Source: a virus. Taken from it: a stretch of DNA of 64,000 nt. Positions 7,422-61,978 of this stretch are shown here, piece after piece. The stretch is from positions 88,297-152,296 of IMG/VR virus record IMGVR_UViG_3300037245_003526. One strand, 5' to 3'. The translations under genes and the position numbers were made by a program. A model generated the notes under the pieces. The model saw only the letters and a list, made by a program, of their open reading frames with translations. It was not told the DNA's origin and made no database searches. The number at the start of each line of letters is the position of its first letter. The stretch's first letter is position 1.

Positions 7422-7952
7422 TTAGACCTCAAATATTCTAAAACATAAATTACTGTTTCTTAATAAAAATTCTGAAGATTTATCATAAAATTCAAATTTA
7501 GTTACTACTATTTCTTTTACTCCAGCATTTATTATTTCAACCATACATGGTGTACATGGTATTCCACAATCCATATACATAGTTGTGTTTCTTGTACATA
7601 CACCAGTACGAGCAGCATTAATAAGACAATTTCTTTCAGCATGTCCAGCTACACACCACTCAAGACCTTCACCACTTTTAAATTTCATAAGTTGTCTGGG
7701 ACATTTTTCAAGATATCTTTCTGCCTCATAATTACATAAACCTGATCGTTTTATTAATTCCTTACAAAATTCATGATCTATTTGAGCTCTTGTATTACAA
7801 TGTGGGATACCTCGTGGAGGTCCATTATATCCTGTGGCAACTATAGAATTATCAATAACCAAAATAGCACCAATTTGTCTTGACATACATTTAGTATTCT
7901 TTCCAACTTCTTTACATATACCTAAAAAATACTTATCCCATCTAGTACTCAT
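7422..7952 (-). CDS. dCMP deaminase
   Basis: WDKYFL ... GAILV ... GYNG ... HAE ... PCTPC zinc-binding motifs of the cytidine/dCMP deaminase fold. Confidence 0.7.
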   Translation of the reverse strand: MSTRWDKYFLGICKEVGKNTKCMSRQIGAILVIDNSIVATGYNGPPRGIPHCNTRAQIDHEFCKELIKRSGLCNYEAERYLEKCPRQLMKFKSGEGLEWCVAGHAERNCLINAARTGVCTRNTTMYMDCGIPCTPCMVEIINAGVKEIVVTKFEFYDKSSEFLLRNSNLCFRIFEV

Positions 7953-30626: not shown

Positions 30627-30638
30627 AGGTGGTTAATT

Positions 30639-31637: not shown

Positions 31638-31646
31638 GAGGATAAT

Positions 31647-31994: not shown

Positions 31995-32150
31995 AAAAAG
32001 AAAGAGGCTAAAGGGTCTTGATATCAAAACTTTAGATCTAAGAGCCATGGAAATTAGTATGGAAAAGTTTTTAGGTATTAGAAGACCTATAAAACAAAAA
32101 AGAATTTTTCGTAAAGAGAGTGCTTATATCTCAAGATAGAAAGGATAACT

Positions 32151-35024: not shown

Positions 35025-35033
35025 GGAGATATA

Positions 35034-36909: not shown

Positions 36910-36915
36910 AAAAAT

Positions 36916-41300: not shown

Positions 41301-41304
41301 TTTT

Positions 41305-41910
41305 ATGGGTAATAAAAGGTATAAACCTACTAGATATTATATGTATAATCGAATAGAAAATTTTTTTAAAAAATACCAACATAAACCTGGTAAATGTTTA
41401 TTAGTTGGGGATTCTTTACGAGGTGTTGGAAATGGTAAAATAGAAATAAAGAACACAGCTATAATAGATATGCTTCCAAAGGGTTGTGATATTACAGCAC
41501 CATCATATCCAGACGTAGATATGATGTATATGCCGTATGATAAAAATACTTTTGATTATATAATATCAGATCAAGTTTTAGAACATGTTAGAAAACCATG
41601 GTTAGCTGCAGCAGAAATAGAACGTGTATTAAAACCTGATGGATGGGCAATTATTACCACATGTTTAATGAACTATATTCATGGAGTACCAGAAGATTAT
41701 TTTAGATTTACTCCAGATGGTTTAAAAGTATTATTTGAAAACCTTTCTTATATAGAACAAGTAGAAGGTTTTGGTAATCTAAACTTTATAACAAAAGCAT
41801 TAACTGGTAAATTCAAAGTACCCGTTAAACCAGGAACTCCTTTAGAAAAAGAAGTTATGATTAACGATAATAAAAACTTATATTTAACATGGATCATAGG
41901 AAGAAAATAA
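41305..41910 (+). CDS. SAM-dependent methyltransferase
   Basis: ISDQVLEHVRKPW ... LKPDG. Confidence 0.4.
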   Translation: MGNKRYKPTRYYMYNRIENFFKKYQHKPGKCLLVGDSLRGVGNGKIEIKNTAIIDMLPKGCDITAPSYPDVDMMYMPYDKNTFDYIISDQVLEHVRKPWLAAAEIERVLKPDGWAIITTCLMNYIHGVPEDYFRFTPDGLKVLFENLSYIEQVEGFGNLNFITKALTGKFKVPVKPGTPLEKEVMINDNKNLYLTWIIGRK

Positions 41911-41920
41911 AGGAGAATTA

Positions 41921-42505
41921 ATGGACTACATCGAAACCAACATTGAAAATACTAAGAAGTTAATGAAAAATATTAACGAAAAAAGATATAGACAGCTTAA
42001 AAAAAATAGATATATTCCTATAATTGAATTAATGGAAAAATATGTTGATAAATCAGGTCCTTTGCTTGATATAGGAATTAGAGAAGGTGCATTTCTTAAA
42101 GTATTAAGAGATGAAGGATTTACTGATTTATATGGTGTTGATATATACGAAGAAGGAGTTCAACAAGCTATTAAAAATGGATTTGATTGTCAAGTTTCAG
42201 ATGCTATGGATCTACAAATTAGAATGAAATTTAATATAGTTACTATATCTCATGTAATAGAACATTGTCCAGATATAAATAAAGTAGTAGATAATATATA
42301 CGATCTATTAAATCCAAAAGGTGTTTTATATGTGGAAGTACCTAAACAGAAGAAACAAAAAATACCTACAAAAGATGGTCACTACTTTTGCTTTTCGACT
42401 CTAAAAGAACTCCATTCATTTTTTCCGGAGGATAAATGGGAATTGTTAGAATTGACAAAAAATAAAGAAAGTGGACGTCTTAAAATATTAGTAAGGAAAA
42501 TATAA
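41921..42505 (+). CDS. SAM-dependent methyltransferase
   Basis: LDIGIREGAF ... VDIY ... ISHVIEHCPD. Confidence 0.4.
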   Translation: MDYIETNIENTKKLMKNINEKRYRQLKKNRYIPIIELMEKYVDKSGPLLDIGIREGAFLKVLRDEGFTDLYGVDIYEEGVQQAIKNGFDCQVSDAMDLQIRMKFNIVTISHVIEHCPDINKVVDNIYDLLNPKGVLYVEVPKQKKQKIPTKDGHYFCFSTLKELHSFFPEDKWELLELTKNKESGRLKILVRKI

Positions 42506-43185
42506 TGAATAATGGTATTGTATATATAGTATTTAAAAAACATAAGGGTGTAGATCATATAAAAGAAGTTATACAATCTGCAAGAGCAGTTAAAAATATT
42601 CATAAAAAACTTAATATAACATTATTTACAGATTCTAAAAATATTAATGAAAATTGTTTTGATAATATAAAAATTATTCCAATTAATAATACCAGAGAAA
42701 AACAAAATTACTTATATGATTCTCCATATGATTATACATTATATTTAGATAGTGATACTAAAGTAGTAAATCCTATTGAAGATATTTTTAAAATTTTAGA
42801 TAGATTTGATATAGCTGCTTGTTTTGATCATGCTAGAAAAGATCCTAAAAAATCTAAAGTTTGGGAAGACTATGCAAAAATACCAAGCTCATTTTCCGAA
42901 TTTGCTGGAGGTGTTATTTTATTTAAAAAATCTCCTGTAGTTGAAAGCTTCTTTAAAGTATGGAGAGTTAACTATGGACTATGGAAAAAAGCATCTGGTA
43001 AATTAAATGATCAACCATCATTTAGAGTTTCATTATGGCAATGTTCAGATTTGAAAGTTTATACTCTTCCCCCTGAATACAATTTAAGGACACAAGAAAA
43101 AAGAGATAAATTTATTATTAATCCTGTAATTCTTCATTGGCATAAAATGTATATGAATGTTAAAGGAACCCCACAAAAATTTTAG
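42505..43185 (+). CDS. hypothetical protein (possible GT-A glycosyltransferase)
   Basis: YLDSDTKVV DxD motif. Confidence 0.3.
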   Translation: MNNGIVYIVFKKHKGVDHIKEVIQSARAVKNIHKKLNITLFTDSKNINENCFDNIKIIPINNTREKQNYLYDSPYDYTLYLDSDTKVVNPIEDIFKILDRFDIAACFDHARKDPKKSKVWEDYAKIPSSFSEFAGGVILFKKSPVVESFFKVWRVNYGLWKKASGKLNDQPSFRVSLWQCSDLKVYTLPPEYNLRTQEKRDKFIINPVILHWHKMYMNVKGTPQKF

Positions 43186-43194
43186 GGAGAATAA

Positions 43195-43854
43195 ATGATT
43201 ATAGATGTGTTAGTTAATAGTTGTGCTAGAGTTGATCTTCTTGAAAAATCAATATCTACATTTAGGAAACATATTAAGACTGATGAACATGAGTTTAGAT
43301 GGGTCATAGTCGAAGATAAAGTTAATGATCCTAAACGTCAAAAAATTGGTGAAAGATGGATATTTGGTAATGGAAATTTATTTGATAAAATTACTTTTTT
43401 GGGAAAAAAAGCAGGACCAGGTTATTGGTGGGCAGAAATAATTAAACATTGTGAATCAGATTTTCATATTCATTTAGAAGATGATTGTAAATTTATCAAT
43501 GATATTTATATAGATCCAATAATTGAAATAATGGAGGTTCAAAGTAATATTGTTGAAATTATATTTAGAAGAGATACAGCAAAAAAGAATAATAATAAAT
43601 TAAAAATATTTGATCTTAAATTAACTGAAATGGATTTATTATCAGTTGCTTCAGGTATTTTTAATACAAAAAATGTAATAAAAATTATTGATAAAATAGG
43701 TTGGAAAAAACAATTACATGAAGCAAAAAACTTAACTCATACATCTAAAAAAATGGGATTAAGAAAATTCATATTAGATCATAATAAAGTACATTATATT
43801 CATGTAGGACAAAAGAAATGTTATAGAAAAGGAAAATGGATTGAAACTAAATAA
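43195..43854 (+). CDS. glycosyltransferase family 2-like
   Basis: MIIDVLVNSCARVDLLEKSI N-terminus and an HLEDD motif. Confidence 0.35.
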   Translation: MIIDVLVNSCARVDLLEKSISTFRKHIKTDEHEFRWVIVEDKVNDPKRQKIGERWIFGNGNLFDKITFLGKKAGPGYWWAEIIKHCESDFHIHLEDDCKFINDIYIDPIIEIMEVQSNIVEIIFRRDTAKKNNNKLKIFDLKLTEMDLLSVASGIFNTKNVIKIIDKIGWKKQLHEAKNLTHTSKKMGLRKFILDHNKVHYIHVGQKKCYRKGKWIETK

Positions 43855-44125
43855 TTGTGAAATTTGTAAAAGATCATTTCCTTCTTTAGATACACATCAT
43901 ATACATAGTCTTAGTTTAGATGGTGTAAATAAAGAATGGAATAAATGTTATATTTGTCCATCGTGTCATAGGTTAGTTCACATAGGTGAAATAATACTTG
44001 AAGGAAGATTTAGAACAACTAAAGGTAATACATTAATTTTTAGAAATAAAGAAGAAGAATCAATAACACAATTTGAGGATCCTCGTGTGTGGTTAATTGG
44101 TAAGGAGAAAAAAGATGAAAAGTAA
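43841..44125 (+). CDS. HNH endonuclease
   Basis: CEIC ... THHIHS ... CPSCHRLVH. Apparent TTG start that overlaps the upstream gene. Confidence 0.5.
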   Translation: MKLNNCEICKRSFPSLDTHHIHSLSLDGVNKEWNKCYICPSCHRLVHIGEIILEGRFRTTKGNTLIFRNKEEESITQFEDPRVWLIGKEKKDEK

Positions 44126-45326
44126 AAATATCATAATATTTGGTGGAGATGGTTTTTGTGGATGGCCAACAGCTCTTTATTTATCAAAAGCAGGTTATAA
44201 TATTACTATTGTAGATAACTTATCTAGACGAAAAATAGATGTTGAATTAGAATGTCAATCTCTTACTCCCATTGCTTCTATTACAAATCGTAGAGCTATG
44301 TGGCAATCAAGGTCAGGTAATGTTATTCATTATGCTAATATAGATGTCCATGATAATTTTCATAGACTTCTTACTATGATTAATGAAATTAAACCTTTAG
44401 CGGTCATTCATTTTGCTGAACAGAGGGCAGCACCCTATTCAATGAAGAGTCCTTGGCATAAGAGATATACGGTTAATAATAATTTAAATGCTACTAATAA
44501 TATATTGGATGCGATTGTTGAATCAGGTTTAGATATTCATGTTGTTCATTTAGGAACAGCTGGTTATTATGGTTATTCTTCAGTAGGAATGAAAATTCCT
44601 GAAGGGTATCTTAAAGTCAAAGTTGATGTTGATGGAGAAGAAAAAGATCTTGAAATAATGTATCCTCCAAATCCAGGATCTATATATCATTTAACTAAAT
44701 GTCAAGATGCTTTGTTTTTTCATTATTATAATAAGAATGATGCTTTAAGAATAACTGATTTACATCAAGGTATTGTTTATGGATGTCAAACTGATGAAAC
44801 AATAATACATGAAGATTTAATTAATCGTTTTGACTATGATGGTGATTATGGAACTGTATTAAATAGGTTTGCTATACAAGCTGCTATAGGTCATCCATTA
44901 ACTATATATGGTACAGGTGGACAAACAAGAGCATTTATTCATATTTCAGATACAGTTAAATGTATTAAATTAGCTATTGAAAATCCTCCAGCAGAAGGTG
45001 ATCGTGTTAGAGTTTTAAATCAAGCTGCTGAATGTTTAAATGTACATGATTTAGCAGACACAATAAAAAGACTTACTGGAGCAGAAATTAGATATTATAA
45101 AAATCCTAGAAATGAAGATCCTAAAAATGAGTTAAAATTTGCTAATGAAGGTTTTAAAAGTTTAGGATGGGAACCTAAATTATTAGAATATGCATTAATA
45201 GAAGATGTTATGAAAATTGCTCATAAATGGAAAGATAGAGTTGATATTGATAAAGTAATACCTACTTCATTATGGGATAAAAATAAAGAGGTTGATAAAA
45301 TAGGAGCATTTATACCAGAAAAATAG
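44115..45326 (+). CDS. UDP-sulfoquinovose synthase (SQD1)-like SDR
   Basis: IIIFGGDGFCGWPTALYLSKAGYNITIVDNLSRR closely parallels the SQD1/Agl3 N-terminus (GGDGYCGW). Start at 44115 behind RBS AAGGAG. Confidence 0.5.
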   Translation: MKSKNIIIFGGDGFCGWPTALYLSKAGYNITIVDNLSRRKIDVELECQSLTPIASITNRRAMWQSRSGNVIHYANIDVHDNFHRLLTMINEIKPLAVIHFAEQRAAPYSMKSPWHKRYTVNNNLNATNNILDAIVESGLDIHVVHLGTAGYYGYSSVGMKIPEGYLKVKVDVDGEEKDLEIMYPPNPGSIYHLTKCQDALFFHYYNKNDALRITDLHQGIVYGCQTDETIIHEDLINRFDYDGDYGTVLNRFAIQAAIGHPLTIYGTGGQTRAFIHISDTVKCIKLAIENPPAEGDRVRVLNQAAECLNVHDLADTIKRLTGAEIRYYKNPRNEDPKNELKFANEGFKSLGWEPKLLEYALIEDVMKIAHKWKDRVDIDKVIPTSLWDKNKEVDKIGAFIPEK

Positions 45327-45337
45327 GAGACTAAAAA

Positions 45338-46318
45338 ATGGCGAATTGGTTAATAACAGGTGGGTGTGGTTTTATAGGATTGAATTTAGTTAAGGAGTTA
45401 GCAGATGAAGGAGGACATGAAATAAGAGTAGTTGATAATATGTCATTCGGTAAAGCTGATGACCTTAAATATGTTTGTGAATATAAACATACACATCCAA
45501 ATAATTTTAAAGAACCTGTAGTAGAATTAGTAGAAGTTGATATTAAAGATAAATTTTATATGAATCAAGTAATGGAAGATATTGATTATGTAGTTCATTT
45601 AGCAGCTATAAGCGGAGTTAGACTTTCAGTTGATGATCCCACAACCAGCTTTACAACAAATGTTGATGGTACTTTTAATTTACTTGAAGCAGCTAGAAAA
45701 AATAATATTAAAAAGTTTATATTTGCTTCAAGTGGCGCTGGAGTTGGAGATCATAAACCACCAATTCATGAAGATTTACCAGCAAGACCAGTATCTCCAT
45801 ATGGGGCAACTAAATTAGCTGGTGAAGGTTTATGTACTTCTTATTATCATTCATTCGGACTTGAAACTACTTCATTAAGATTTAGTAATGTTTATGGTCC
45901 TTTTTCTCATCGTAAAGAAAGTCTTGTAGCAAAATTAGTAAAACGAGTATTAGATAATAAAACTTTTAATATATATGGTGATGGTAATCAAACAAGAGAT
46001 TTTGTATATGTAGATGATTTAGTTAATGCAATAAAACTTTGTGTTTCTACAGAAGATATTGGAGGAGAAATATATCAATTATGTACAGGTAATGAATCTT
46101 CAATAAATTTCATTATTGGTGAAATAATACATATACTTAAAAAGAGAGCGTTTGATGATTTTAAACTTGAAATAGTAGAAGAAAAAATTGGAGATTTAAA
46201 AACAAATTGGGCAGATAATACAAAAATATATAATCACTTAGGATGGTCTCCGCAAGTTAAATTAGATGAAGGTCTTGAAAATACTATAGGTTGGTTAATC
46301 GAAAATTATAAAAAGTAG
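45338..46318 (+). CDS. NAD-dependent nucleotide-sugar epimerase/dehydratase
   Basis: WLITGGCGFIGLNLV Rossmann motif and YGATK catalytic motif. Confidence 0.55.
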   Translation: MANWLITGGCGFIGLNLVKELADEGGHEIRVVDNMSFGKADDLKYVCEYKHTHPNNFKEPVVELVEVDIKDKFYMNQVMEDIDYVVHLAAISGVRLSVDDPTTSFTTNVDGTFNLLEAARKNNIKKFIFASSGAGVGDHKPPIHEDLPARPVSPYGATKLAGEGLCTSYYHSFGLETTSLRFSNVYGPFSHRKESLVAKLVKRVLDNKTFNIYGDGNQTRDFVYVDDLVNAIKLCVSTEDIGGEIYQLCTGNESSINFIIGEIIHILKKRAFDDFKLEIVEEKIGDLKTNWADNTKIYNHLGWSPQVKLDEGLENTIGWLIENYKK

Positions 46319-46386: not shown

Positions 46387-47232
46387 CTATAAAAGTGTAG
46401 ATATGAAACAAGTTGCATCCTTTGCAGAATCAATAAGTTCTGCACCAGCGTCACTAATATCTAATGGTTCAGATCTAGCTCCAACAAGAGGTTCTATTTC
46501 AGGATTAACTACTGGCTCGTCCACAGGTTCATCATCCACAGGTTCATCATCCATAGGTTCATCATCCACAGGTTCATCATCCACAGGTTCATCATCCATA
46601 GGTTCATCATCCACAGGTTCATCATGTGTCCAACCGGCCATTGCATGATCATAAATAGCAGCACGATCAAGGGAACCTACAACACGATCATATACTCGGA
46701 TTTCATCAACCCTTCCCTGAATACCATCCCAATCAAATGTTACACCTACATCAATAGCACCCTCAAAATAAAATACGGGAGCTTCTACATTATTGATGTA
46801 GAATCTGAAACCAACCGAATCATCATCATCAATTTGGGTTTTAGTCACTATTATATGATAATACCCGTACTGAGGAATAATAACATTCAGATTTGCACCA
46901 CCAAGTGACATAACAAATATTGAATATGAAATTGTATACTCTGCTAATTCTGAAAGATCGGGTACTGTTATTTCTGCCCCAAATTGTGGATCCAACATAC
47001 AACTATAATTTCTTGAACCATCTGGAGTTACTATTTCCCTATCCCATGTAAAGTTGTATCCAAGATCCACTTCATCAACACTCGGGTCAATCCAATAAGG
47101 GAAATCCCGTTCCGGATTTTCTATTTGCGGTTCCATTGGTTGATAAGCAACAAGTCCATCATTAATATCTGCACTTACAATCCCTACCATCAAAAACACA
47201 ATCATTATAGTAATGTTAAAAATCTTTTTCAT
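46387..47232 (-). CDS. secreted LamG/concanavalin-like lectin-domain protein with a C-terminal acidic (DEPV/MDDEP)n repeat
   Basis: Signal peptide MKKIFNITIMIVFLMVGIVSA. GRVDEIRVYDRVVGSLD (LamG_3-like). Repeats DEPVDDEPMDDEPVDDEP. Higher GC than its neighbours. Confidence 0.45.
   Translation of the reverse strand: MKKIFNITIMIVFLMVGIVSADINDGLVAYQPMEPQIENPERDFPYWIDPSVDEVDLGYNFTWDREIVTPDGSRNYSCMLDPQFGAEITVPDLSELAEYTISYSIFVMSLGGANLNVIIPQYGYYHIIVTKTQIDDDDSVGFRFYINNVEAPVFYFEGAIDVGVTFDWDGIQGRVDEIRVYDRVVGSLDRAAIYDHAMAGWTHDEPVDDEPMDDEPVDDEPVDDEPMDDEPVDDEPVDEPVVNPEIEPLVGARSEPLDISDAGAELIDSAKDATCFISTLL
46516..46625. repeat. about seven tandem 15-bp repeats (CAGGTTCATCATCCA/T) encoding the acidic repeat
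   Basis: Read directly from the sequence. Confidence 0.7.
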
Positions 47233-48795: not shown

Positions 48796-49818
48796 ATGAA
48801 ATCGTTTTGGCTCTTTCGTAGTAATTTAAGACAGTTTGAATCGTACCATAAATATAGAACATTAAAAGAATTTGAAGAAAATTGTTGGGATTTTTATTTG
48901 ATTCAAGGTTTATGGTTTTTAAGAAATAATTATTTTGATGAAGTTATAATATGGAGATTAAAACCAAAAGGTAAAGAACCTTTTACAATAACTTTTGATG
49001 TAAATGGAAAGAAATTTAAACAAATGTTTGTAGAAGACTTTTCTGAATGTATGAAACTTCCTAAACCTTATGTTACATTTTGGAGAGGAGGATTTCAAGA
49101 ATATGATAATTTAACTAAAACATATTATAATTTCTTTAAACCAAGAAGTCTATATTGTGGAACAGGTAAAAGAATTACTCCACAATATGGTGGTAAATAT
49201 GATATGATTTTAATGGAAGATGAAAGAGACTTTAATAAAAAATTTAATTGTATTCCATTTTATAAAACTGCTTGTCCAACTATCTTCTATAAGTATGGAT
49301 CAAAACAATGGTATGATATTTGTTTTCCAGCAAACTTTATGCAGAAAACTTATAAAGGTCAAGAATTTTTTATAAGAGAAATATCCAAATCTAATTTTTT
49401 GAAAAGTTTAAATATAATCAATATAGGTAATAAACCTAAAGTTGGTGAAAATATTTGTAAAAAATATGGAGTTAAAAATATTGAATTCGGTGGTCTTAAA
49501 ACTAGATCTGAAGTAAATCAAATTTTTAATGAATCAAAATTCGGTATAGTTTGCTCTAATAGAACAGATGGTTGTCCAAGAGTAATATCAGAAATAATGT
49601 CAACTGGTACTCCTATTATAATAAGAGATATGACCAGAGTATTAAAGTATTATAAAGGATCTGGAACTATTCCATTTAAAGATAATGAAATAGTAACAAA
49701 AATAAAAGGAGCATTTAAAAATTATGATGTATTTAAAACTTTAGCAATTAATAATTTAGATAGAATTTCAATGAATTCTATATGTAATAAAAATTATTAT
49801 TTATGGACAAAAAAATAA
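48796..49818 (+). CDS. hypothetical protein (possible GT-B glycosyltransferase C-domain)
   Basis: KFGIVCSNRTDGCPRVISEIMSTGTPIII resembles a GT1 C-terminal motif. Confidence 0.3.
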   Translation: MKSFWLFRSNLRQFESYHKYRTLKEFEENCWDFYLIQGLWFLRNNYFDEVIIWRLKPKGKEPFTITFDVNGKKFKQMFVEDFSECMKLPKPYVTFWRGGFQEYDNLTKTYYNFFKPRSLYCGTGKRITPQYGGKYDMILMEDERDFNKKFNCIPFYKTACPTIFYKYGSKQWYDICFPANFMQKTYKGQEFFIREISKSNFLKSLNIINIGNKPKVGENICKKYGVKNIEFGGLKTRSEVNQIFNESKFGIVCSNRTDGCPRVISEIMSTGTPIIIRDMTRVLKYYKGSGTIPFKDNEIVTKIKGAFKNYDVFKTLAINNLDRISMNSICNKNYYLWTKK

Positions 49819-50701: not shown

Positions 50702-51253
50702 ATGGAGAAAATTCTTATCCTTTATAGTGGTGGTGCTGATTCCAGACTTATGTTAGAGCTAGCACATAAGATTGGATTATCAATCAATTGCCTTCTTATC
50801 AATTATGATCAGTTACATTCAGAAGAATTATCAATAGCAAAAAAACAACTAGAAGAATTAGAGATACCATACCAAACAGTCGATTTAAAAAATCTAAATA
50901 TTAATAGCGGTCTTACCGGAGATGGTATTAAAGATGATTCAGGTGATGTCCATGAAATGTATGTACCAGGAAGAAATACAGTATTTTTAAGTATAGCTCT
51001 TAGTATAGCTGAAAGTAAAGATATTAAAACAATATGGTTAGGATGTGATTGGTCAGATCGTTTAAATCTTTTTCCTGATTGTTATCAGGAATATATAGTA
51101 CAAATAAATGAGTTATTTAAAATTGCAGGTCCAAAATCAATAAAGGTTGAAGCTCCATTAATGGGATTAAGTAAAAAAAATATATTTGGATTACTTAAAT
51201 CATTTGGAGTAGATGAAGGAGATATTTTTTCTGGTTATGGGGATTTATCATGA
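50702..51253 (+). CDS. queC: QueC-like 7-cyano-7-deazaguanine synthase (PP-loop ATPase), C-terminally short
   Basis: ILYSGGADSRL PP-loop, YDQLH, VPGRNTVFLSIALSIAE, and DCYQEY. It lacks the C-terminal Cys4 zinc site of canonical QueC. Confidence 0.5.
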   Translation: MEKILILYSGGADSRLMLELAHKIGLSINCLLINYDQLHSEELSIAKKQLEELEIPYQTVDLKNLNINSGLTGDGIKDDSGDVHEMYVPGRNTVFLSIALSIAESKDIKTIWLGCDWSDRLNLFPDCYQEYIVQINELFKIAGPKSIKVEAPLMGLSKKNIFGLLKSFGVDEGDIFSGYGDLS

Positions 51254-51612
51254 AAAAAGAAAAGTTAAAAGAGGGAATTAAATATGACTTTGGAAAAAGT
51301 CGATATGATCTGATAGACCCATATGCATTAGAACAAGTTATACAAATATACACATTTGGTTGTAATAAATATGAAGATCATAATTGGCGAAAAGGAATGA
51401 AATGGAGTAGAGTATTCGGTGCACTAATGAGACATTGTTGGGCATTCTGGAGAGGAGAAGAAATAGATCCAGAAAGTAAATTACCTCATATGGCACATGC
51501 TGCATGGAATTGTCTTACCTTAATTAATTATTCAAAGTATAGAACAAAATTTGATGACAGATGGATAGAAACAGAAGAGAAAATAATCGAAAACGTAAGG
51601 AGAGGAAAATGA
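51250..51612 (+). CDS. phage NTP pyrophosphohydrolase-like protein (dATP/dGTP diphosphohydrolase N-domain family, from memory)
   Basis: GKSRYDLIDPYAL ... KYEDHNWRKGMKWSRVFGALMRHCWAFWRGEEID ... HMAHAAWNCLTL. This matches the pattern GKxRYDLxPxxAL ... KYGDxNWxKG ... SRxxDSALRH ... DHLAAAAWN that I recall for that family. Confidence 0.4.
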   Translation: MKKEKLKEGIKYDFGKSRYDLIDPYALEQVIQIYTFGCNKYEDHNWRKGMKWSRVFGALMRHCWAFWRGEEIDPESKLPHMAHAAWNCLTLINYSKYRTKFDDRWIETEEKIIENVRRGK

Positions 51613-52019
51613 TTAAAGTATACTTGGCAGGTTATGCAGGAGAAAAGGAATATAGAGAATATGTTTCTAAAAGATATGGAAGACATTTAGATATATTTGA
51701 TCCAATGAAAGAAGTTGACTCTAAAATTTTAGAAAAATATAGTGGAGGAACTTTATCAGAAAAAGATGTTGCTCTTATTGTAGAAGGAGATAAAGCAGCA
51801 ATTGAATCATGTGATATAGTTATTGTATATATAAGGAGAGCTTCTTTTGGAACAGCAATGGAAACGCTTCATGCATTCAAAAATAAAATTCCTGTTTATT
51901 TAATTGATTCAGATAATAAATGGAGAGAAGATGTTTGGGTACGATACCATACAACTAAGACATTCGATGATATAGATTCATGCTTCAGTTATATTTTAGA
52001 AAGCATAAAAGGATTGTAG
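51609..52019 (+). CDS. nucleoside 2-deoxyribosyltransferase-like / dNMP N-hydrolase-like protein
   Basis: MIKVYLAGYAG N-terminus and FGTAMETLHAFKNKIPVYLI (G-T-x-x-E catalytic motif). Start at 51609 (ATGA overlap, RBS AAGGAGAGG). Confidence 0.4.
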   Translation: MIKVYLAGYAGEKEYREYVSKRYGRHLDIFDPMKEVDSKILEKYSGGTLSEKDVALIVEGDKAAIESCDIVIVYIRRASFGTAMETLHAFKNKIPVYLIDSDNKWREDVWVRYHTTKTFDDIDSCFSYILESIKGL

Positions 52020-52065
52020 GTTTTTATTTTAAAATTGTGTAACAAAATAATGAAAGGGTATTAAA

Positions 52066-52593
52066 ATGGACTACTTTAGTTCCGATTGGCATTTTGGCCA
52101 TAGTAATATTATGAGGTATTGTAAAAGGAAATTTAAGCATATAGATCATCACGATAAAGCACTAATACGAAATTGTAATGATGTAGTTGGAGAAAATGAT
52201 AGGTTAATTTTCGTGGGTGATCTAAGTCTTAAAGCAGCAAATAATAAAGGTTATTATCAAAGACTCATTTCTAAAATCAAATGTAAAAACAAAATTATCA
52301 TTCCTGGAAATCACGATAGAAATAATTTCAGATTTTATGCCGGAGATGGCGGAGTAGGATTCAAACAACTTATTTGGCCGTATATGGAATATGAAGAGTT
52401 TATAGTATGTCATGATCCCTCCTTATCTCAAGTTGATAGAAACCGATTTTTTATATGTGGACATGTTCACGATCATTATCATATATTAGGTAATGTTTTT
52501 AATTGTGGTGTTGATGTGAATGATTTTAAACCAGTATCAATAGAAAGTATAAGACAACAATTAATAGATGAAAGGAATAAAAATGTCAAGTAA
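52066..52593 (+). CDS. calcineurin-like metallophosphoesterase
   Basis: DWHFGH, GDL, GNHD and GHVH motifs in order. Confidence 0.6.
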   Translation: MDYFSSDWHFGHSNIMRYCKRKFKHIDHHDKALIRNCNDVVGENDRLIFVGDLSLKAANNKGYYQRLISKIKCKNKIIIPGNHDRNNFRFYAGDGGVGFKQLIWPYMEYEEFIVCHDPSLSQVDRNRFFICGHVHDHYHILGNVFNCGVDVNDFKPVSIESIRQQLIDERNKNVK

Positions 52594-53269
52594 TAAAATA
52601 GATATTAATATGACAGAAGTAATATCTTTATTAAATGAAAAATATAATAAAAAGAAAGGAATAGATTCTGAAATATTAGAAATAATATCTTTATTAAATG
52701 AAAAATATAATAAAAGGAAAGGAATAGAAAAAATGACGACGGTAGAAAATTGTGAAGGTAGTTGTGAAAATAATTGTCCAGGAACATGTACATGTGCAAA
52801 TAATCCTTATGACATAGCAAAAAAATTAATTACTGATAGACAATTATCTGGAAATCGAATGGGAATAAATGATGATATATGTAATACAAATTTAATATCA
52901 AAAAATTATAGTCCCATGTTTGTAAGAAAATTTAATGCATCAGAACTTTATAATTGGCCACTATATGTTTCTATGATTTGTGACGAAGATGTTAGTGATA
53001 TTGATGCAGTAGTTAATGGTGCATTAAAAGCATTTGATGAAGCAGGTCTAATTAGTAATAATCTTCAAAGTATGAGAAATTTAACAGGTATAATATCTGA
53101 AACTGTATCAAAACATTATAACAATAAAAAACATAATTGTGTGGAAGGAATCGCAATAACTTTATACATTGATAAAGCTTATATACAAAGTTTTACTGGT
53201 GATTATATGAATCATGCCCAATGTAGATCAGAATACACATCAGCACTTCAAATGATGACCCAGATTTAA
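52583..53269 (+). CDS. hypothetical protein with an internal duplicated segment and a Cys-rich stretch
   Basis: ISLLNEKYNKKKGI x2, encoded by a ~48-bp direct repeat at 52621-52730. CEGSCENNCPGTCTC. Confidence 0.35.
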   Translation: MSSNKIDINMTEVISLLNEKYNKKKGIDSEILEIISLLNEKYNKRKGIEKMTTVENCEGSCENNCPGTCTCANNPYDIAKKLITDRQLSGNRMGINDDICNTNLISKNYSPMFVRKFNASELYNWPLYVSMICDEDVSDIDAVVNGALKAFDEAGLISNNLQSMRNLTGIISETVSKHYNNKKHNCVEGIAITLYIDKAYIQSFTGDYMNHAQCRSEYTSALQMMTQI

Positions 53270-55652: not shown

Positions 55653-56185
55653 ATTGTTTAAAATGTGGTGTTGAAACTACAAATACTAAATTTTGTGGAA
55701 GAGCATGTTCTGCTTCATATAACACAAAAGGTAGAAAACATTCTATTGAAACCAAAAGAAAAATAAGTAATACATTAGGTGGAGTAGGTAAAGCAGAAGA
55801 AGAACATTTTTGTAAATTATGTGGACATAATATTTCAAGTGTTAGAAAAACTAAATTATGTGATACATGTAAAATTGGTGAATTTTTATGTGATGTATGT
55901 GGAAAAATTTGTAAAACAGAATTAGGATTAAAAAGTCATAAAGAACAAGGTTGTATTAACAGAAAAATAGGTATAGATTCACAAGGTTATGAATATTTTA
56001 CTGATAATGAAAATAAATTTAAATATGTTCATAGATCTAAAATTGAAGAATTGTTAGGAAGAAAACTAAAAACTAATGAAGTTGTTCATCATAAAGATGA
56101 AATTAAAAAAAATAATGATATAGAAAATCTAGAACTAATGACTATATCTAAACATTCAAAACTTCATGCTGATATGCGCCGATAG
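55649..56185 (+). CDS. HNH endonuclease with N-terminal zinc ribbon and a C2H2-like finger
   Basis: CLKCG ... CGRAC, CDVCGKICKTELGLKSHKEQ, and C-terminal VHHKDEIKKNNDIENLELMTISKHSKLH. Its 3' end overlaps tRNA-Trp. Confidence 0.5.
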   Translation: MNCLKCGVETTNTKFCGRACSASYNTKGRKHSIETKRKISNTLGGVGKAEEEHFCKLCGHNISSVRKTKLCDTCKIGEFLCDVCGKICKTELGLKSHKEQGCINRKIGIDSQGYEYFTDNENKFKYVHRSKIEELLGRKLKTNEVVHHKDEIKKNNDIENLELMTISKHSKLHADMRR

Positions 56186-56251
56186 CTCAAGCGGGTAGAG
56201 TACTGGTCTCCAAAACCAGTGGTGGGGATTCGAGGTCCTCTCGGCGTGCCA
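56176..56251 (+). tRNA. tRNA-Trp (anticodon CCA)
   Basis: Manual cloverleaf. Acceptor GCGCCGA / TCGGCGT, anticodon arm CTGGT-CTCCAAA-ACCAG, T-loop TTCGAGG, 3' GCCA. Confidence 0.55.
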
Positions 56252-56273
56252 TAAAAACGAAAGGAAAATAAGA

Positions 56274-56558
56274 GTGGATGATATAAAAAGATATAAATCA
56301 CAAAACGAAATAAATATACCTATAGTTAGAAACTACAAAGATTTATATATTCTACTTCAAAGACCAATGAATTTTGAAGATGGTTCTGAAGCATATATTC
56401 ATTCTGAAGGAATTATAAGAGAAGATTGGCCGAATGCTCATTTATGTTTTTTAAAATATACAGCAGATAATAAAATAAGGGATTGGCTTTGGTTATTGAG
56501 TCCAGACGAAAAAAAAGGTATGTGTATTTTTGACTTTAAACCAGAGTATACAGTTTAA
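56274..56558 (+). CDS. hypothetical protein. Paralog A of a tandem duplicated pair.
   Basis: MDDIKRYKSQNEI ... C.FDFKPEY. Confidence 0.4.
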   Translation: MDDIKRYKSQNEINIPIVRNYKDLYILLQRPMNFEDGSEAYIHSEGIIREDWPNAHLCFLKYTADNKIRDWLWLLSPDEKKGMCIFDFKPEYTV

Positions 56559-56575
56559 ACGAAAGGTAGTTCTTA

Positions 56576-56860
56576 ATGAATGAATTAAAAAGATATAAAT
56601 CAGCAGAAGAATTGAATAACCCATATTTTGTTAAAGATCATAAGGACTTGAATAAATTAGATAAAAAGTTTGATTTAAAAGAGGGTGATGAAGCAGTTTG
56701 GATTATTGATAGAACTGGCTGTCCAGAATGGTGGAATGGCGAACGTAATTATTATAGAAATATTAATGATTCTAAAAATCCACAATATATATGGTGCCCA
56801 ATTAAGGGTGAAGATGGTGGTTTATGTTTTATTGACTTTGAACCAGAATACTCAATTTAA
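56576..56860 (+). CDS. hypothetical protein (paralog B)
   Basis: MNELKRYKSAEEL ... CFIDFEPEY. Same length as paralog A (94 aa). Confidence 0.4.
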   Translation: MNELKRYKSAEELNNPYFVKDHKDLNKLDKKFDLKEGDEAVWIIDRTGCPEWWNGERNYYRNINDSKNPQYIWCPIKGEDGGLCFIDFEPEYSI

Positions 56861-56877
56861 ACGAAAGGAAATTAACA

Positions 56878-57261
56878 TTGAAGATAGCATTTGATTTTCA
56901 CGGAGTATTACAAACGTATCCAGAAATTTTAAAACCTATTTTAATATCATTAAATAAAGAACATAATTTAATAATATTATCTGGACCACCATGGAAAGAA
57001 ATTTTTGTAGAACTTACTGACGCAGGTTATACTTTAGGTACCCACTATGATGAAATAATTTCTGTAGTTGATTGGATTAAAGAACAAGGTATTCCAATGC
57101 ACCAAAATGAAAATGAATCATGGTATTGTGATGATGAAAGTTGGTGGTCAAGTAAAGCTAAAATTTGTAAACAAAATCATATAAGTGTTTTAGTAGATGA
57201 TAAGATACAATATAAAGAACATATTGAAAATAATTTTCCATTATTTTTTCATGTGAAATAA
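56878..57261 (+). CDS. small HAD-like hydrolase (5'(3')-deoxyribonucleotidase-like). TTG start.
   Basis: IAFDFHGVL (motif I) and VLVDD (motif IV). Confidence 0.35.
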   Translation: MKIAFDFHGVLQTYPEILKPILISLNKEHNLIILSGPPWKEIFVELTDAGYTLGTHYDEIISVVDWIKEQGIPMHQNENESWYCDDESWWSSKAKICKQNHISVLVDDKIQYKEHIENNFPLFFHVK

Positions 57262-57262
57262 A

Positions 57263-57338
57263 CCTCCCATAGCTCAACAGGTAGAGCATTCGCCTTATAA
57301 GCGAAAGACGATAGGTTCGATTCCTACTGGGAGGACCA
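57263..57338 (+). tRNA. tRNA-Ile (anticodon UAU, reads AUA)
   Basis: Manual fold. Acceptor CCTCCCA / TGGGAGG, D-stem GCTC/GAGC, anticodon arm TTCGC-CTTATAA-GCGAA, T-loop TTCGATT, ACCA. Confidence 0.5.
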
Positions 57339-57343
57339 TATAT

Positions 57344-57418
57344 TCCTTAGTGGTGAAATTGGCATCACGTATGGCTGTTAACCATAAATTACAGGTTCGA
57401 CCCCTGTCTGAGGAGCCA
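57344..57418 (+). tRNA. tRNA-Asn (GUU)
   Basis: Manual fold. Acceptor TCCTTAG / CTGAGGA, D-stem GTGA/TCAC, anticodon arm TATGG-CTGTTAA-CCATA, T-arm ACAGG-TTCGACC-CCTGT, GCCA. Confidence 0.5.
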
Positions 57419-57424
57419 AATTAT

Positions 57425-57498
57425 TCTCAGGATGTATACGGAGCATTATTAATTGACGCGCGCTTTAGTAGGAAGTTCGACCCTTCCCCTGAGAGCCA
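57425..57498 (+). tRNA. tRNA-like element or pseudo-tRNA (no canonical anticodon arm)
   Basis: Acceptor TCTCAGG / CCTGAGA plus GCCA, and a good T-arm GGAAG-TTCGACC-CTTCC. The central 39 nt, including GACGCGCGC, does not fold into a D-arm and anticodon arm. Confidence 0.3.
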
Positions 57499-57504
57499 TT
57501 TAAT

Positions 57505-57580
57505 GGGTGAGTAGCTAAACTGGCTTAGCGTCGAGCTGTTAACTCGAAGTATGAGAGTTCAAGTCTCTCCTTGCCCTCCA
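57505..57580 (+). tRNA. tRNA-Asn (GUU), second copy
   Basis: Manual fold. Acceptor GGGTGAG / CTTGCCC (2 G-U pairs), D-stem GCTA/TAGC, anticodon arm TCGAG-CTGTTAA-CTCGA, T-arm GAGAG-TTCAAGT-CTCTC, TCCA. Confidence 0.45.
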
Positions 57581-57601
57581 TTAAAAACGAAAGGATACTT
57601 T

Positions 57602-57826
57602 ATGATAAGTCCATGTAAAAAATGTATTAATCATTCAAGAATATTTCCAGTATGTTTTGATAAATGCAAATCAATAGAACAATTTCAACATTCATTATTT
57701 CATACTTCTATTATTGAAGAAGCAGAAGATTATGAATATATAACTCAAGATTGTCTATGGAAATATGAAGGTATATATAGACTAGCTAATACGAAAACAC
57801 CTCAAATAGAAGCTCAACTATATTAA
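57602..57826 (+). CDS. Cys-rich zinc-ribbon family member (short)
   Basis: MISPCKKCINHSRIFPVCFDKCKS. Start behind AAACGAAAGGA. The track's longer ORF overlaps the tRNA. Confidence 0.4.
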   Translation: MISPCKKCINHSRIFPVCFDKCKSIEQFQHSLFHTSIIEEAEDYEYITQDCLWKYEGIYRLANTKTPQIEAQLY

Positions 57827-57829
57827 TAA

Positions 57830-57904
57830 TGGGGGATCGTCTAATGGTCAGGACCCAAGATTTTGAATCTTGTAATCGGAGTTCGAATCTCTGTCCCTCA
57901 GCCA
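57830..57904 (+). tRNA. tRNA-Gln (UUG)
   Basis: Manual fold. Acceptor TGGGGGA / TCCCTCA, D-stem GTCT/GGAC, anticodon arm CAAGA-TTTTGAA-TCTTG, T-arm CGGAG-TTCGAAT-CTCTG, GCCA. Confidence 0.5.
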
Positions 57905-57908
57905 AATA

Positions 57909-58172
57909 ATGCCGAGTAGTATATTGATTATTACAACCGAACTTAAAGGGAGAATGAGGTTTAATTCCTCACTCGGCAACCACTTAAAAATTATGAAAGA
58001 AAATCTATATTGGTTAAACACGACTTGGGGTTGTGGTGGAATACTAACAAATGATAAGAATATAATTACAAATTCATGTCCATTATATGGTTGGATGAAA
58101 GGAAATAAAATAAGTTATATTCTAAAGTATCTTGATAAAAAAAGAGTATTAAGAAAATGTAAAAAAATATAG
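57909..58172 (+). CDS. hypothetical protein
   Basis: 87 aa. A 7-bp inverted repeat (GCCGAGT / ACTCGGC) spans its 5' end. Confidence 0.3.
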   Translation: MPSSILIITTELKGRMRFNSSLGNHLKIMKENLYWLNTTWGCGGILTNDKNIITNSCPLYGWMKGNKISYILKYLDKKRVLRKCKKI

Positions 58173-58187
58173 AAAGGAAGGTATATT

Positions 58188-58748
58188 ATGAACAAGGTGA
58201 TTGTTTTAAATAGCGATTACAGTTTTCTAAATTTAGTACATTGGAAAACAGCAATGCGCCTGGTTTGTAAGAATAAAGTTGAGGTTTTAAAAGAGACTAC
58301 TAGGATTTTAACTGACGAATTAAAAACTTGGAAAATTGCTATACCATTAGTAATAAGACTTGTTAAAATAGTTCGTACTATTTATAAGACTAGAGTACCT
58401 TTTAGTAAAAAGAATGTATTTGTTCGTGACAATTTTACATGTCAATATTGTGGAGAAGAGTTTAATAGTAAAACTAAAAAGAGAGTTTTGAATGCCTCTG
58501 GACATCATGAAAGCATACTATTAAATATAGATCATTTAAATCCTACCTCAAAAGGTGGGAAATCAACATTTGAAAATTGTGTTGCTTCATGTAAAACTTG
58601 TAATAATAAGAAAGGTGATAGGAGTCTAAGAGAACTAAATATGGTTTTAGCAAGGAGTCCATTTCAACCAACTATTATGGAGTTCATGATTCTTAAAATG
58701 AAATCTTTAGGAATAGATGAGATTCTTAAAGACTTAGGAGTATATTAG
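58188..58748 (+). CDS. HNH endonuclease
   Basis: CQYCGEEF ... HHESILLNIDHLNPTSKGG ... NCVASCKTCNNKKGD. Confidence 0.55.
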   Translation: MNKVIVLNSDYSFLNLVHWKTAMRLVCKNKVEVLKETTRILTDELKTWKIAIPLVIRLVKIVRTIYKTRVPFSKKNVFVRDNFTCQYCGEEFNSKTKKRVLNASGHHESILLNIDHLNPTSKGGKSTFENCVASCKTCNNKKGDRSLRELNMVLARSPFQPTIMEFMILKMKSLGIDEILKDLGVY

Positions 58749-58755
58749 ATTAATG

Positions 58756-58842
58756 GCGGGTACCGTCCACGGGGACAAGCGGCCTTGAAAGCCGTTGGCG
58801 TGTGTAAAAGCATGGGCGTTCGACTCGTCTACTCGCCGCCAT
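58756..58842 (+). tRNA. tRNA-Ser (UGA), class II with long variable arm
   Basis: GC-rich island. Acceptor GGCGGGT / ACTCGCC plus GCCA, 3-bp D-stem, anticodon arm GCGGC-CTTGAAA-GCCGT, ~18-nt variable arm, T-arm GGGCG-TTCGACT-CGTCT. Confidence 0.5.
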
Positions 58843-59156: not shown

Positions 59157-59354
59157 ATGGAACGATTCAGAAATAAACAGACTGAATGTAAATATTCAGA
59201 TATAAATAATAAAGGTTTTTGTAATTATAACAACTGGCACAATGGTCTGTGCTTTTGTACTAAAAAAGAATGGGAAGGAAAAAAGTTAAAAGCATATTTA
59301 TGTTGTCCATATCTTTTTTTAAATGATACAGAAGAATACGGAAAGGAAAGGTGA
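59157..59354 (+). CDS. small Cys-rich hypothetical protein
   Basis: 65 aa. CKYS ... FCNYNNWHNGLCFC ... CCPY. Confidence 0.35.
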   Translation: MERFRNKQTECKYSDINNKGFCNYNNWHNGLCFCTKKEWEGKKLKAYLCCPYLFLNDTEEYGKER

Positions 59355-60475
59355 GAAAAGTGAAGACTGATAAATTAGCATCATTAATCCCAATCCACGA
59401 ACTAGAACAATCCGCACAACAACAAGTCTATAATAATCTAGCGTTTGACTTTTTATTAAAGTTAGCTATCATGCCAGATTGTCATACAGGATATTTATTA
59501 CCAATAGGTGGAGTTGCATTATTAGATAATGTTGTATCTCCTGAATACGTTGGATATGATGAAGGTTGTGGTATGTGTTGTATAGTAACAGATATACCTT
59601 ACTATGATATACTTAAAAATGATAAAAAGAATCAAAGATTATTTGATAAAATATATAAACATATTCCTGTTGGATTTAATATGAGAGAAAATTCTCTTCA
59701 TTGTTTTGATGAATTCAAATCAGCATCTGGTGATAAAGCTTTAAATAAAAAAGTAAATGAAAAATTATGGAAACAGCTAGGTACACTGGGAGGGGGTAAT
59801 CATTTTATTGAATTGGGTAAAGATAAAAATGATATGTTTTGTATCACTATACATTCTGGTTCACGTAATCCTGGTCATTCTGTTGCTGGTTTTTATATGA
59901 AGAAAACAAAACTCATTGATAAAGATTTACCTAAAGGATTCTTCCATCTACATTCAGAATGGGGTCAGATGTTTATACAAGACTTAGAATTTATGCTTGA
60001 ATATGCTCTTGCTAATAGAACAGAGATGATGAAAAATATTTTAGATATAGTTGGTTTATCTCATAACTTTTTATTTAAGATGATTAATGAAAATCATAAT
60101 CATGCTATTGTTCAGAATAATAATACAGTACTTCATAGAAAAGGTGCTACTCCATCATTAAAAAATCAACTTGGAGTTATACCTGGTAATATGAGAGATG
60201 GTGTTTATGTTGTTAAAGGTCTTGGTAATAAAAAATATCTTAATTCATCTTCTCATGGAGCTGGAAGAAAGGGTTCTAGAAGATGGGCAAAAGAGTCTAT
60301 TACAATGGAAAGATTTGAACAGTCAATGGATGGAATAATAGCTAAAGTTGATAAGTCTACATTAGATGAAGCACCTGATGCTTATAAAAATGTTGACAAG
60401 GTAATTCAAGCACAGGCAGGAATTGTAGTAGATGTTATTAATCATATCCAACCTATTATAAATGTGAAAGGATAA
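59351..60475 (+). CDS. rtcB: RtcB-family RNA ligase (3'-phosphate/5'-OH)
   Basis: MPDCHTGY ... PIGGVA, GGGNHFIELG, HSGSRNPGH and SSHGAGR. These are the canonical RtcB metal-binding and GMP-His motifs. Confidence 0.65.
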   Translation: MRKVKTDKLASLIPIHELEQSAQQQVYNNLAFDFLLKLAIMPDCHTGYLLPIGGVALLDNVVSPEYVGYDEGCGMCCIVTDIPYYDILKNDKKNQRLFDKIYKHIPVGFNMRENSLHCFDEFKSASGDKALNKKVNEKLWKQLGTLGGGNHFIELGKDKNDMFCITIHSGSRNPGHSVAGFYMKKTKLIDKDLPKGFFHLHSEWGQMFIQDLEFMLEYALANRTEMMKNILDIVGLSHNFLFKMINENHNHAIVQNNNTVLHRKGATPSLKNQLGVIPGNMRDGVYVVKGLGNKKYLNSSSHGAGRKGSRRWAKESITMERFEQSMDGIIAKVDKSTLDEAPDAYKNVDKVIQAQAGIVVDVINHIQPIINVKG

Positions 60476-61657: not shown

Positions 61658-61978
61658 ATGATTGTAGAAAAAGTAAAACAATTTTTTTCAAGTGAGAATA
61701 AGGAAATATTTAAATTTATAAAAAAAGAAAAGTACCCTTGTAAAGAATGTCTTGTAGTACAAGTATGTTCAGAACTTTGTGATAAAGTTGAAATTGATGA
61801 ATATAAAATTTTTAATAAAATGATTACTAATAGTTGTTGTCCTGATTGTGGTGGAACAAAACTTTATGAAGGTTCAAGTGGAGGATGTTGTCAAAATATT
61901 TTTTGTACAAATTGTAACCATGGATTTAATGTAACAGCTCCTTTTGAAAAAATTGAAAGAATAGGAAAAATGAGATAG
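61658..61978 (+). CDS. Cys-rich double zinc-ribbon protein (family member)
   Basis: PCKECLVVQVCSELCDKV ... CPDCGG ... CTNCNH. Confidence 0.5.
   Translation: MIVEKVKQFFSSENKEIFKFIKKEKYPCKECLVVQVCSELCDKVEIDEYKIFNKMITNSCCPDCGGTKLYEGSSGGCCQNIFCTNCNHGFNVTAPFEKIERIGKMR

Follow-up and report, generated by a model that had tools for sequence, protein, structure and literature searches.

All eight 7-deazaguanine bases known from DNA depend, to our knowledge, on a canonical zinc-containing QueC, on a Gat-QueC or on neither, and all of them are inserted by DpdA. In the Z-genome pathway to 2-aminoadenine, MazZ feeds PurZ, which resembles the pairing of a deoxynucleoside triphosphate (dNTP) pyrophosphatase with a base-changing enzyme. 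The gene cluster described here lies in a 64 kb stretch of viral DNA (the window), positions 88,297 to 152,296 of IMG/VR record IMGVR_UViG_3300037245_003526, and it encodes a QueC-like enzyme without the zinc site together with a T-fold protein that probably descends from FolE; in related phages this pair takes the place of canonical QueC. One protein of the window recurs with 100% identity on a JGI contig 244,552 bp long, and the window therefore makes up about a quarter of a jumbo-phage genome of about 244.5 kb. It has a GC content of about 29% and shows no similarity at the DNA level to deposited phages, and a metagenome scan with a fragment of its ribonucleotide reductase (RNR) found relatives that are at most 72% identical. 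A search with the QueC-like protein brought together 19 related viral loci, whose gene content we compared.

The catalytic motifs of canonical QueC were defined by Libby et al. (PMC13329287), who placed the essential tyrosine, Tyr189, in the zinc region and described a Y131F enzyme as partly active. The first gene of the cluster (Table 1), with a Shine-Dalgarno sequence (AAGGAG) 8 nt upstream, encodes a protein that matches the QueC profile PF06508 over positions 1 to 184 of 210 (1e-35; 123.6 bits against a Pfam cut-off of 22) and Bacillus subtilis QueC (PDB 3bl5) over residues 4 to 174 of 219 (1e-17). With canonical QueC (PF06508 cluster 1, TIGR00364) it has in common the motif SGGxDS for ATP binding, present as YSGGADS at residues 8 to 14 and invariant across 14 phage homologs, as well as YxQxHxxE (YDQLHSEE), VPxRN (VPGRN), (Y/F)PDC in the form FPDC instead of YPDC, which recalls the Y131F enzyme, the conserved Lys (GLSKK) and the Tyr of a C-terminal SGY. 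It differs in that it ends right past this Tyr (FSGYGDLS, with the stop 5 residues past SGY), without the C(x)8CxxCxxC zinc site: where canonical phage QueC has SCYKGGNKPCNVCPTC, a sequence also seen in QueC of Campylobacter phage CP220, the first zinc Cys is a Gly and the CxxCxxC knuckle is missing. The loss is real and not an artefact of gene calling, because the start of the second gene falls inside the stop codon of the first.

The protein also stays below the cut-off of the TIGR00364 equivalog (115.5 bits against 150.3) and no deposited phage QueC exceeds 33% identity to it. A hidden Markov model (HMM) built on the zinc-less family separates its members, which score at least 199 bits, from canonical QueC at 113 bits or less, and the zinc motif is missing in all of them; L009 alone has a non-homologous Cys-rich C-terminal tail, VCACGKSECTCDHHESGC, on a QueC-like protein encoded at 9692-10597 of that locus. 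An earlier sequence-only reading of the window had recognised a QueC-like enzyme without the C-terminal zinc site and had named a better alignment to an unrelated PP-loop ATPase as one part of an outcome that would speak against its reading. The first point stands and the second did not arise: the QueC motifs are kept, orthologs in other phages lie inside complete clusters of FolE, QueD, QueE and DpdA, and by its sequence the protein is a genuine QueC-family member, not another PP-loop ATPase.

Other repurposed QueC scaffolds resemble the zinc-less family in part. Cap9 of type IV CBASS, QatC and RoyL-type enzymes couple the carboxylate of 7-carboxy-7-deazaguanine (CDG) to nucleophiles other than ammonia; they carry a Cys-rich metal motif, act with protein or amino-acid partners and belong to defence or natural-product clusters, whereas the zinc-less QueC has a T-fold partner and stands in a context of phage DNA replication and nucleotide genes. 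QueC* of phage CP220 is a phage QueC paralog proposed to be an ADG synthase, with a product other than preQ0 (PMC10516641). It is about 30% identical to the window protein over residues 1-161, but it has 219 residues, keeps SCYKGGNKPCNVCPTC and has no T-fold neighbour. In PF06508 cluster 4, a QueC-like protein lies beside a fusion of PfkB with a nucleoside 2'-deoxyribosyltransferase (NDT) in Proteobacteria (Libby et al. 2026, PMC13329287). That cluster shares with ours the genomic link between a QueC-family protein and a deoxyribosyltransferase domain; it differs in its Cys-rich CH(x)5CxxCxGCxK motif, its diverged substrate motifs and its bacterial origin, and no T-fold partner has been reported for it.

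By closing the cluster at 52593, the sequence-only reading left the constant partner of the QueC-like gene just outside. Across the related loci the most constant associate of that gene is the ortholog of a T-fold protein encoded directly downstream of the fourth gene, and not the second, third or fourth gene itself. Of the alternative starts of this open reading frame (ORF), the Met at 52733 probably opens the T-fold core of about 155 residues, which has 81 close homologs with 44 invariant columns, including NTNLISK, RNxTGxxSE, NCVEG and GDxMNHxxCRxE; R115, E138, D147/K148, H161 and C164 are among the invariant residues. The N-termini vary in length and sequence. In the window the 5' extension (52597-52722) contains a 63-nt tandem duplication followed by a Cys-rich stretch, CEGSCENNCPGTCTC; this stretch and VCACGKSECTCDHHESGC of the L009 QueC-like protein perhaps represent a metal site, vestigial or alternative, where QueC and T-fold meet.

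An AF2 model predicts a beta-beta-alpha-alpha-beta-beta T-fold (pLDDT 81.8), the fold common to FolE, DpdL, QueF and QueF-L, and FolE is both the nearest structure and the nearest profile. The T-fold core with N- and C-terminal helices that marks GTP cyclohydrolase I (PF01227) is present, and HHalign against FolE from phage clusters gave a probability of 52.9% (E 1.4e-4, 114 columns), with 0.2% for QueD and QueE. The FolE CEHH motif aligns, however, with a variable stretch, the QER Glu aligns with an invariant Arg115, the HxC loop is deleted, and the wider family has no conserved Cys/His triad at the FolE catalytic positions. Having lost the catalytic residues of FolE, the protein would be no cyclohydrolase but a T-fold that derives from FolE and has acquired a new active site. 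QueF-type thioimide chemistry at Cys136 (NCVEG) was considered and is unlikely, as this Cys is missing in distant members.

We found no match for the T-fold protein in Pfam, among PDB sequences (noise only), among BFVD structures (E<=1e-3) or, by tblastn, in 50,697 deposited phage records, and an exhaustive profile search of 1.84 billion representatives (50% identity clusters) returned 102 members. The family is rare and confined to uncultured phages, and annotation pipelines would miss it. DpdL, a QueD-like phage T-fold paralog recruited to alter deazaguanine, is found without QueC (PMC10516641), whereas the new T-fold protein is without an accompanying QueC-like gene in three loci only, namely L029 and two short contigs; from FolE-type T-folds it differs in matching no Pfam T-fold family as well as in its lost catalytic residues.

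The QueC-like and T-fold genes occur together in 28 non-redundant phage contigs, adjacent to each other in 15 (-46 to +84 bp) and otherwise 1.1-6.3 kb apart, with 1.5 kb between them in the window. In two proteins, P0119 (391 aa) and P0134 (354 aa), a QueC-like portion ending in FSGY is fused to the T-fold. The zinc-less form is obligatorily paired with or fused to its partner. The T-fold is fused to an NDT domain in P0087, P0095, P0106, P0110 and P0112 and in the 273-275-aa proteins of L003-5 and L007, and it occurs in tandem in three representatives. MazZ and NDT are fused in L012 (282 aa) and L008 (243 aa), where the NDT portion exceeds both Pfam cut-offs. Because these natural fusions link them, we regard the QueC-like, T-fold, NDT and MazZ-like proteins as one functional unit. 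The functional link that the sequence-only reading had drawn between the QueC-like, MazZ-like and NDT-like genes is borne out by the fusions; the phosphoesterase and HAD-like genes that it had added are not conserved with the unit.

The connection with DNA modification comes from the gene neighbourhoods. On a 79-kb contig the P0119 fusion is preceded by QueD, QueE and a second radical-SAM gene and followed by a PIG-L/LmbE-like gene, a GT-B-like glycosyltransferase (GT) gene, FolE and DpdA (phrog_887, 2.8e-34), with DnaB, clamp and PolA genes adjoining, and the unfused pair stands within the same type of block in L018 and L039. Five mid-size type I loci share the order QueD-QueE-(rSAM)-QueC-like-T-fold-LmbE-like-GT-like-(FolE)-DpdA, in which the zinc-less enzyme occupies the slot of canonical QueC; DpdA and preQ0 pathway genes adjoin orthologous pairs in L018, L039, L041, L045 and L121/122, and a bona fide FolE is found alongside the T-fold gene in five loci. 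We then scored with local HMMs 80 loci around DpdA genes of the subfamily seen beside P0119. A QueC-family gene is present in 56 of the 80 and the T-fold in exactly four (L045, L052, L121, L122), which are also exactly those with zinc-less QueC, LmbE-like and GT-like genes, while the other 52 QueC-bearing loci keep CxxCxxC in 51 cases and have the T-fold in none. This pattern, together with the gene order, leads us to conclude that the pair replaces canonical QueC in otherwise complete pathways. NDT-like and MazZ-like genes occur in four DpdA loci without the T-fold.

The metal motifs PHxDD and HPDHR carry a match (E 1.6e-4) between the LmbE-like profile and archaeal diacetylchitobiose deacetylases; the assignment of the GT-like gene of these cassettes is weak. 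The best 120 of 1637 DpdA homologs are all on contigs of at most 80.5 kb, and a scan of GTDB with the DpdA profile found 17 loci, none on a jumbo contig. The second radical-SAM protein (about 340 aa, with weak SPASM/twitch-like matches) occurs in DpdA clusters with and without the T-fold pair (L018, L039, L040, L041, L045 and L121; L069, L070, L076, L081, L103, L105, L109 and L209-211). In Vibrio phage vB_VcorM_GR11A (L123, 8983-10549) two adjacent genes are annotated as 7-cyano-7-deazaguanine synthase and adjoin a lysine 2,3-aminomutase-like radical-SAM gene.

Four arrangements of the pair can be told apart. The first is that of mid-size phages with DpdA, FolE, QueD and QueE, where NDT and MazZ were never seen. 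The second, in which the QueC-like, T-fold, LmbE-like and GT-like genes stand beside ThiF and ThyX, belongs to phages of 100-150 kb; in L023-L025 (8103-11207) and L013-L017, a ThiF/E1-like adenylyltransferase gene and a gene for a 150-aa Rho_N-domain protein precede the pair, with ThyX and PTH2 after it. In the third, jumbo phages have NDT, MazZ and dCMP deaminase as well, the NDT often as a fusion with the T-fold. The fourth is that of the window clade (L001, L002, L009-11, L020, L028, L031), which has the QueC-like, T-fold, NDT, MazZ and dCMP deaminase genes, with a GT1-family gene conserved upstream. The dCMP deaminase ortholog usually lies between the QueC-like and MazZ-like genes in the relatives and has moved 43 kb away in the window. 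A QueE-like gene occurs in L029; the radical-SAM gene of the closest relative, L001, is generic and was rejected as a QueE.

In our interpretation, to which we give a probability of roughly 0.6, the cluster is the version found in jumbo phages of a module for making and handling a 7-deazaguanine-type base; the 7-deazaguanine link is supported by comparative genomics. The retained QueC signature suggests that the QueC-like enzyme adenylates the carboxylate of CDG with ATP and leads to an amide or a nitrile. T-folds characteristically bind purines and pterins. The partner, descended from GTP cyclohydrolase I, would have lost the zinc and His residues of FolE and gained an invariant polar set of its own, and the two proteins may act jointly, probably as a complex, in which the T-fold would bind the planar deazapurine and either complete the active site in place of the zinc knuckle or convert the product of the QueC-like enzyme. 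Because phages that need preQ0 keep canonical QueC, we infer that the product of the pair differs from preQ0. In the first arrangement the base would go to DpdA, and the LmbE-like and GT-B-like genes that follow the pair suggest a further decorated, possibly sugar-bearing, deazaguanine in DNA, made by enzymes that may decorate the base. There are precedents in glycosylated preQ0 derivatives such as huimycin and in amine-using QueC homologs such as RoyL (bioRxiv 10.64898/2026.04.15.718813).

In the window clade, the NDT-fold base-exchange enzyme and the MazZ-like dNTP pyrophosphohydrolase would tie the base to the deoxynucleotide pool, and both the NDT fold and its fusions, with the T-fold and with MazZ, suggest that a base is exchanged on a deoxynucleoside or a deoxynucleotide. 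One could imagine that the modified purine is loaded at the nucleotide level, before replication and independently of DpdA, although we hold this extension to be doubtful. On such a route the MazZ-like enzyme would convert dGTP to dGMP, thereby depleting the competitor and providing the deoxyribose-phosphate donor, the NDT-fold enzyme, in several lineages a fusion with the T-fold, would exchange guanine for the deazaguanine base from the QueC-like/T-fold pair, and the product would be phosphorylated and then incorporated by the phage polymerase. If true, this would be the first case in which 7-deazaguanine enters DNA by a pre-replicative route without DpdA, with a logic analogous to that of the MazZ-PurZ route to 2-aminoadenine. 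The window differs from Z-genome phages in that it has no PurZ or DatZ and in that its MazZ-like domain, although it shares PF18909 with MazZ, has only 120 residues.

Several observations weigh against the proposal of a 7-deazaguanine module. Many contigs are near-duplicates, so that the pair represents about 17 independent lineages, not 28. With the zinc region gone, the QueC-like enzyme could differ in activity, though its Tyr is retained, and the homology of the T-fold to FolE (HHalign 53%) is moderately supported. The activities of both proteins are proposed from sequence and a model, and their substrates, their assembly into a complex and which base finally results are equally what we infer. 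The fourth arrangement is without the LmbE-like or GT-like gene, and DpdA, FolE and QueD never occur within 10 kb on either side of the pair in arrangements two to four. Pfam searches of all window ORFs found no TGT/DpdA, PTPS, QueE, GTP_cyclohydroI or PurZ; purpose-built HMMs for DpdA, FolE, QueD, QueE, the second radical-SAM protein, the LmbE-like and the GT-like proteins found nothing in the window, even at E<=10, nor around the homologs of two genes that mark the window ends in relatives, the RNR (660 kb of flanking sequence from 80 relatives) and NadM-Nudix (five relatives). The sequence-only reading had likewise seen no DpdA/TGT, QueD, QueE or FolE in the window, which holds for the first three and for a catalytic FolE, but it had overlooked the FolE-derived T-fold directly downstream. 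In the window phage the base may reach DNA through a DpdA encoded elsewhere in the genome or through the NDT/MazZ branch.

The absence of DpdA from the window agrees with an explanation by ordinary, independent auxiliary genes, under which the QueC-like enzyme boosts the preQ0 or queuosine supply of the host, for example for the phage tRNA-Asn(GUU), the MazZ-like, NDT-like and phosphoesterase proteins are generic nucleotide-pool housekeeping and the T-fold protein is an unrelated neighbour. Two tRNA-Asn(GTT) genes, a tmRNA gene and RtcB are indeed encoded in the window, the NDT-like and MazZ-like genes of the four DpdA loci without T-fold show that these two can occur apart from the pair, and in the relatives the cluster lies among nucleotide-metabolism genes (dCMP deaminase, ThyX, ThyA). 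We nevertheless consider such independence improbable, given the strict pairing of QueC-like and T-fold genes and the fusions QueC-T-fold, NDT-T-fold and MazZ-NDT. Moreover, the pair stands between QueE and DpdA in five loci, beside DNA replication genes and not tRNA genes, and it substitutes for canonical QueC instead of adding to it.

The same DpdA/FolE/QueD/QueE context, which points to nucleic acid, makes it quite unlikely that the QueC-like protein is a Cap9/QatC-type ligase joining carboxy-deazaguanine to an amine of a protein, be it the T-fold or a defence protein of the host, with a role in regulation or anti-defence. Such a role would suit its size, as Cap9, a minimal QueC, has about 185 aa and the ancestral catalytic core (PMC13329287) and the window protein has the same core in 183 aa, and homologs that use an amine and not ammonia, such as RoyL, are known (bioRxiv 10.64898/2026.04.15.718813). 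However, Cap9 and QatC both retain the Cys-rich zinc motif that the zinc-less family does not, PADLOC gave the window protein only a weak generic QueC match (5e-13) and no Cap9 or QatC model, and no CD-NTase, QatA, QatB or QatD is found near the QueC-like gene in the window or the loci; the variable N-termini of the T-fold are also unlike a defined N-terminal acceptor. The idea that the T-fold is a divergent GTP cyclohydrolase I, so that the phage would bring the preQ0 pathway's first enzyme and its last and would depend on QueD and QueE of the host, is barely credible in view of the FolE residues listed above, which are not conserved or are deleted, the missing Cys/His triad in the wider family and the bona fide FolE that stands beside the T-fold in five loci.

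Under the 7-deazaguanine reading, a zinc-less QueC coupled to a FolE-derived T-fold and substituting for QueC in DpdA clusters is an undescribed enzyme pair, which probably makes an undescribed deazapurine product. In the literature on QueC-like deazaguanylation, DpdL, T-folds with glycosyltransferases and DpdA with LmbE, we found neither a zinc-less phage QueC paired with a T-fold nor a description of NDT-T-fold and MazZ-NDT fusions. The fusions to NDT and the MazZ-like domain raise the testable possibility of a nucleotide-level route into DNA; independently of that route, a ninth deazaguanine derivative, decorated with sugar, may come from the DpdA-type cassettes, which carry LmbE-like and GT-like genes. 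The gene set could be used for new base-modified DNA and for the biocatalytic synthesis of 7-deaza-2'-deoxynucleosides.

Table 1. Position of the cluster genes and of two syntenic neighbours in the window, with the basis of each assignment.
Feature	Position	Strand	Basis
Zinc-less QueC-family PP-loop enzyme, 183 aa	50702..51253	+	Pfam, PHROG, NCBIfam, PDB 3bl5, family alignment, family HMM
MazZ-like all-alpha (d)NTP pyrophosphohydrolase domain, 120 aa	51250..51612	+	PF18909, phrog_801
Nucleoside 2'-deoxyribosyltransferase-fold (NDT-like) protein, 136 aa	51609..52019	+	NDT fold, GTxxE nucleophile motif and N-terminal Tyr
Calcineurin-like metallophosphoesterase, 175 aa	52066..52593	+	phrog_547 1e-37; TIGR04123 PdeM-like 3e-8
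T-fold partner protein	52568..53269	+	Directly downstream of the phosphoesterase gene; alternative starts 52568, 52583, 52733
GT1-family glycosyltransferase	48796..49818	+	Pfam Glyco_trans_1_4 5.6e-8; synteny
dCMP deaminase	7422..7952	-	Pfam dCMP_cyt_deam_1 3e-14; synteny

The first four genes of Table 1, which the sequence-only reading had described as consecutive with ATGA-type overlaps, are real and consecutive; the overlaps are found at the first two junctions only (51250-51253 and 51609-51612), the third being a gap of 46 nt. The family assignments made for the second to fourth genes have survived. The second gene, taken to belong to the phage dATP/dGTP-diphosphohydrolase-like all-alpha family, matches PF18909 dGTP_diPhyd_N (1.6e-34; 118.2 bits against a cut-off of 27) and phrog_801 (1.4e-45), with no match among PDB sequences. 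The third has the fold, the GTxxE motif and the N-terminal Tyr of nucleoside 2'-deoxyribosyltransferases (PF05014 / PF15891), and its family keeps GTxME, with the putative Glu nucleophile, Tyr5, Arg16 and Asp61 invariant. The calcineurin-like phosphoesterase is slightly under the cut-off of Pfam Metallophos; it has a single homolog across all related loci, outside any cassette, and is probably a passenger or an insertion outside the conserved unit. The gene at 56878 had been called a HAD deoxynucleotidase-like gene, which we could not substantiate: the ORF has no match in Pfam, NCBIfam or PADLOC, only one to a PHROG of unknown function, and no homolog in the related loci.

The GT1-family gene is kept upstream of the QueC-like gene in 12 related contigs, and its membership in the unit is uncertain. 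We rejected it as the counterpart of the GT-like gene of the cassettes, with an HHalign probability of 0.3% and both genes co-occurring in L003-7.

Other replication and nucleotide genes in the window encode a class II-like RNR, a RecD-like helicase, a clamp-loader ATPase and a NADAR protein, in addition to the dCMP deaminase, and three HNH endonucleases and NadM-Nudix are further content. A 22-nt unit, AAAGGTACACATGAGGGTATA, is repeated in four to five tandem copies at 13743-13852. The repeats lie where gene orientation flips from the minus strand (below 12514) to the plus strand (above 12827) and where cumulative GC skew has its minimum, and they look like an iteron-type replication origin. 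A scan for promoters and terminators found such sites no more often than by chance. The window also has six tRNA genes (Trp, Ile-TAT, two Asn-GTT, Gln and Ser) and a tmRNA gene with the tag ADNLAFAAADDYATAALAA, at 56176-58841 and 62029-62403, and RtcB is encoded at 59351-60475; the anticodon of Asn-GUU is of the class that can be modified with queuosine.

About 20 glycan-synthesis genes follow one another at 27330-46318, an unusually elaborate set for a phage, with two GT9 heptosyltransferase-like genes, a GT1, a sulfotransferase, at least six methyltransferases, two NDP-sugar epimerases/dehydratases, a nucleotidyltransferase-kinase and a HAD-cupin gene. A 2546-aa ORF at 18652-26292, probably a fibre or an adhesin, contains three internal repeat copies of about 1.93 kb that are 60-83% identical. 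At least six small paralogous Cys-rich, zinc-ribbon-like ORFs with a common 57-nt core are found at 6201-9031 (minus strand) and 61658-61978, and a predicted secreted protein (46387-47232, minus strand) contains a 15-nt tandem repeat that codes for (D/E)EP(V/M)D units.

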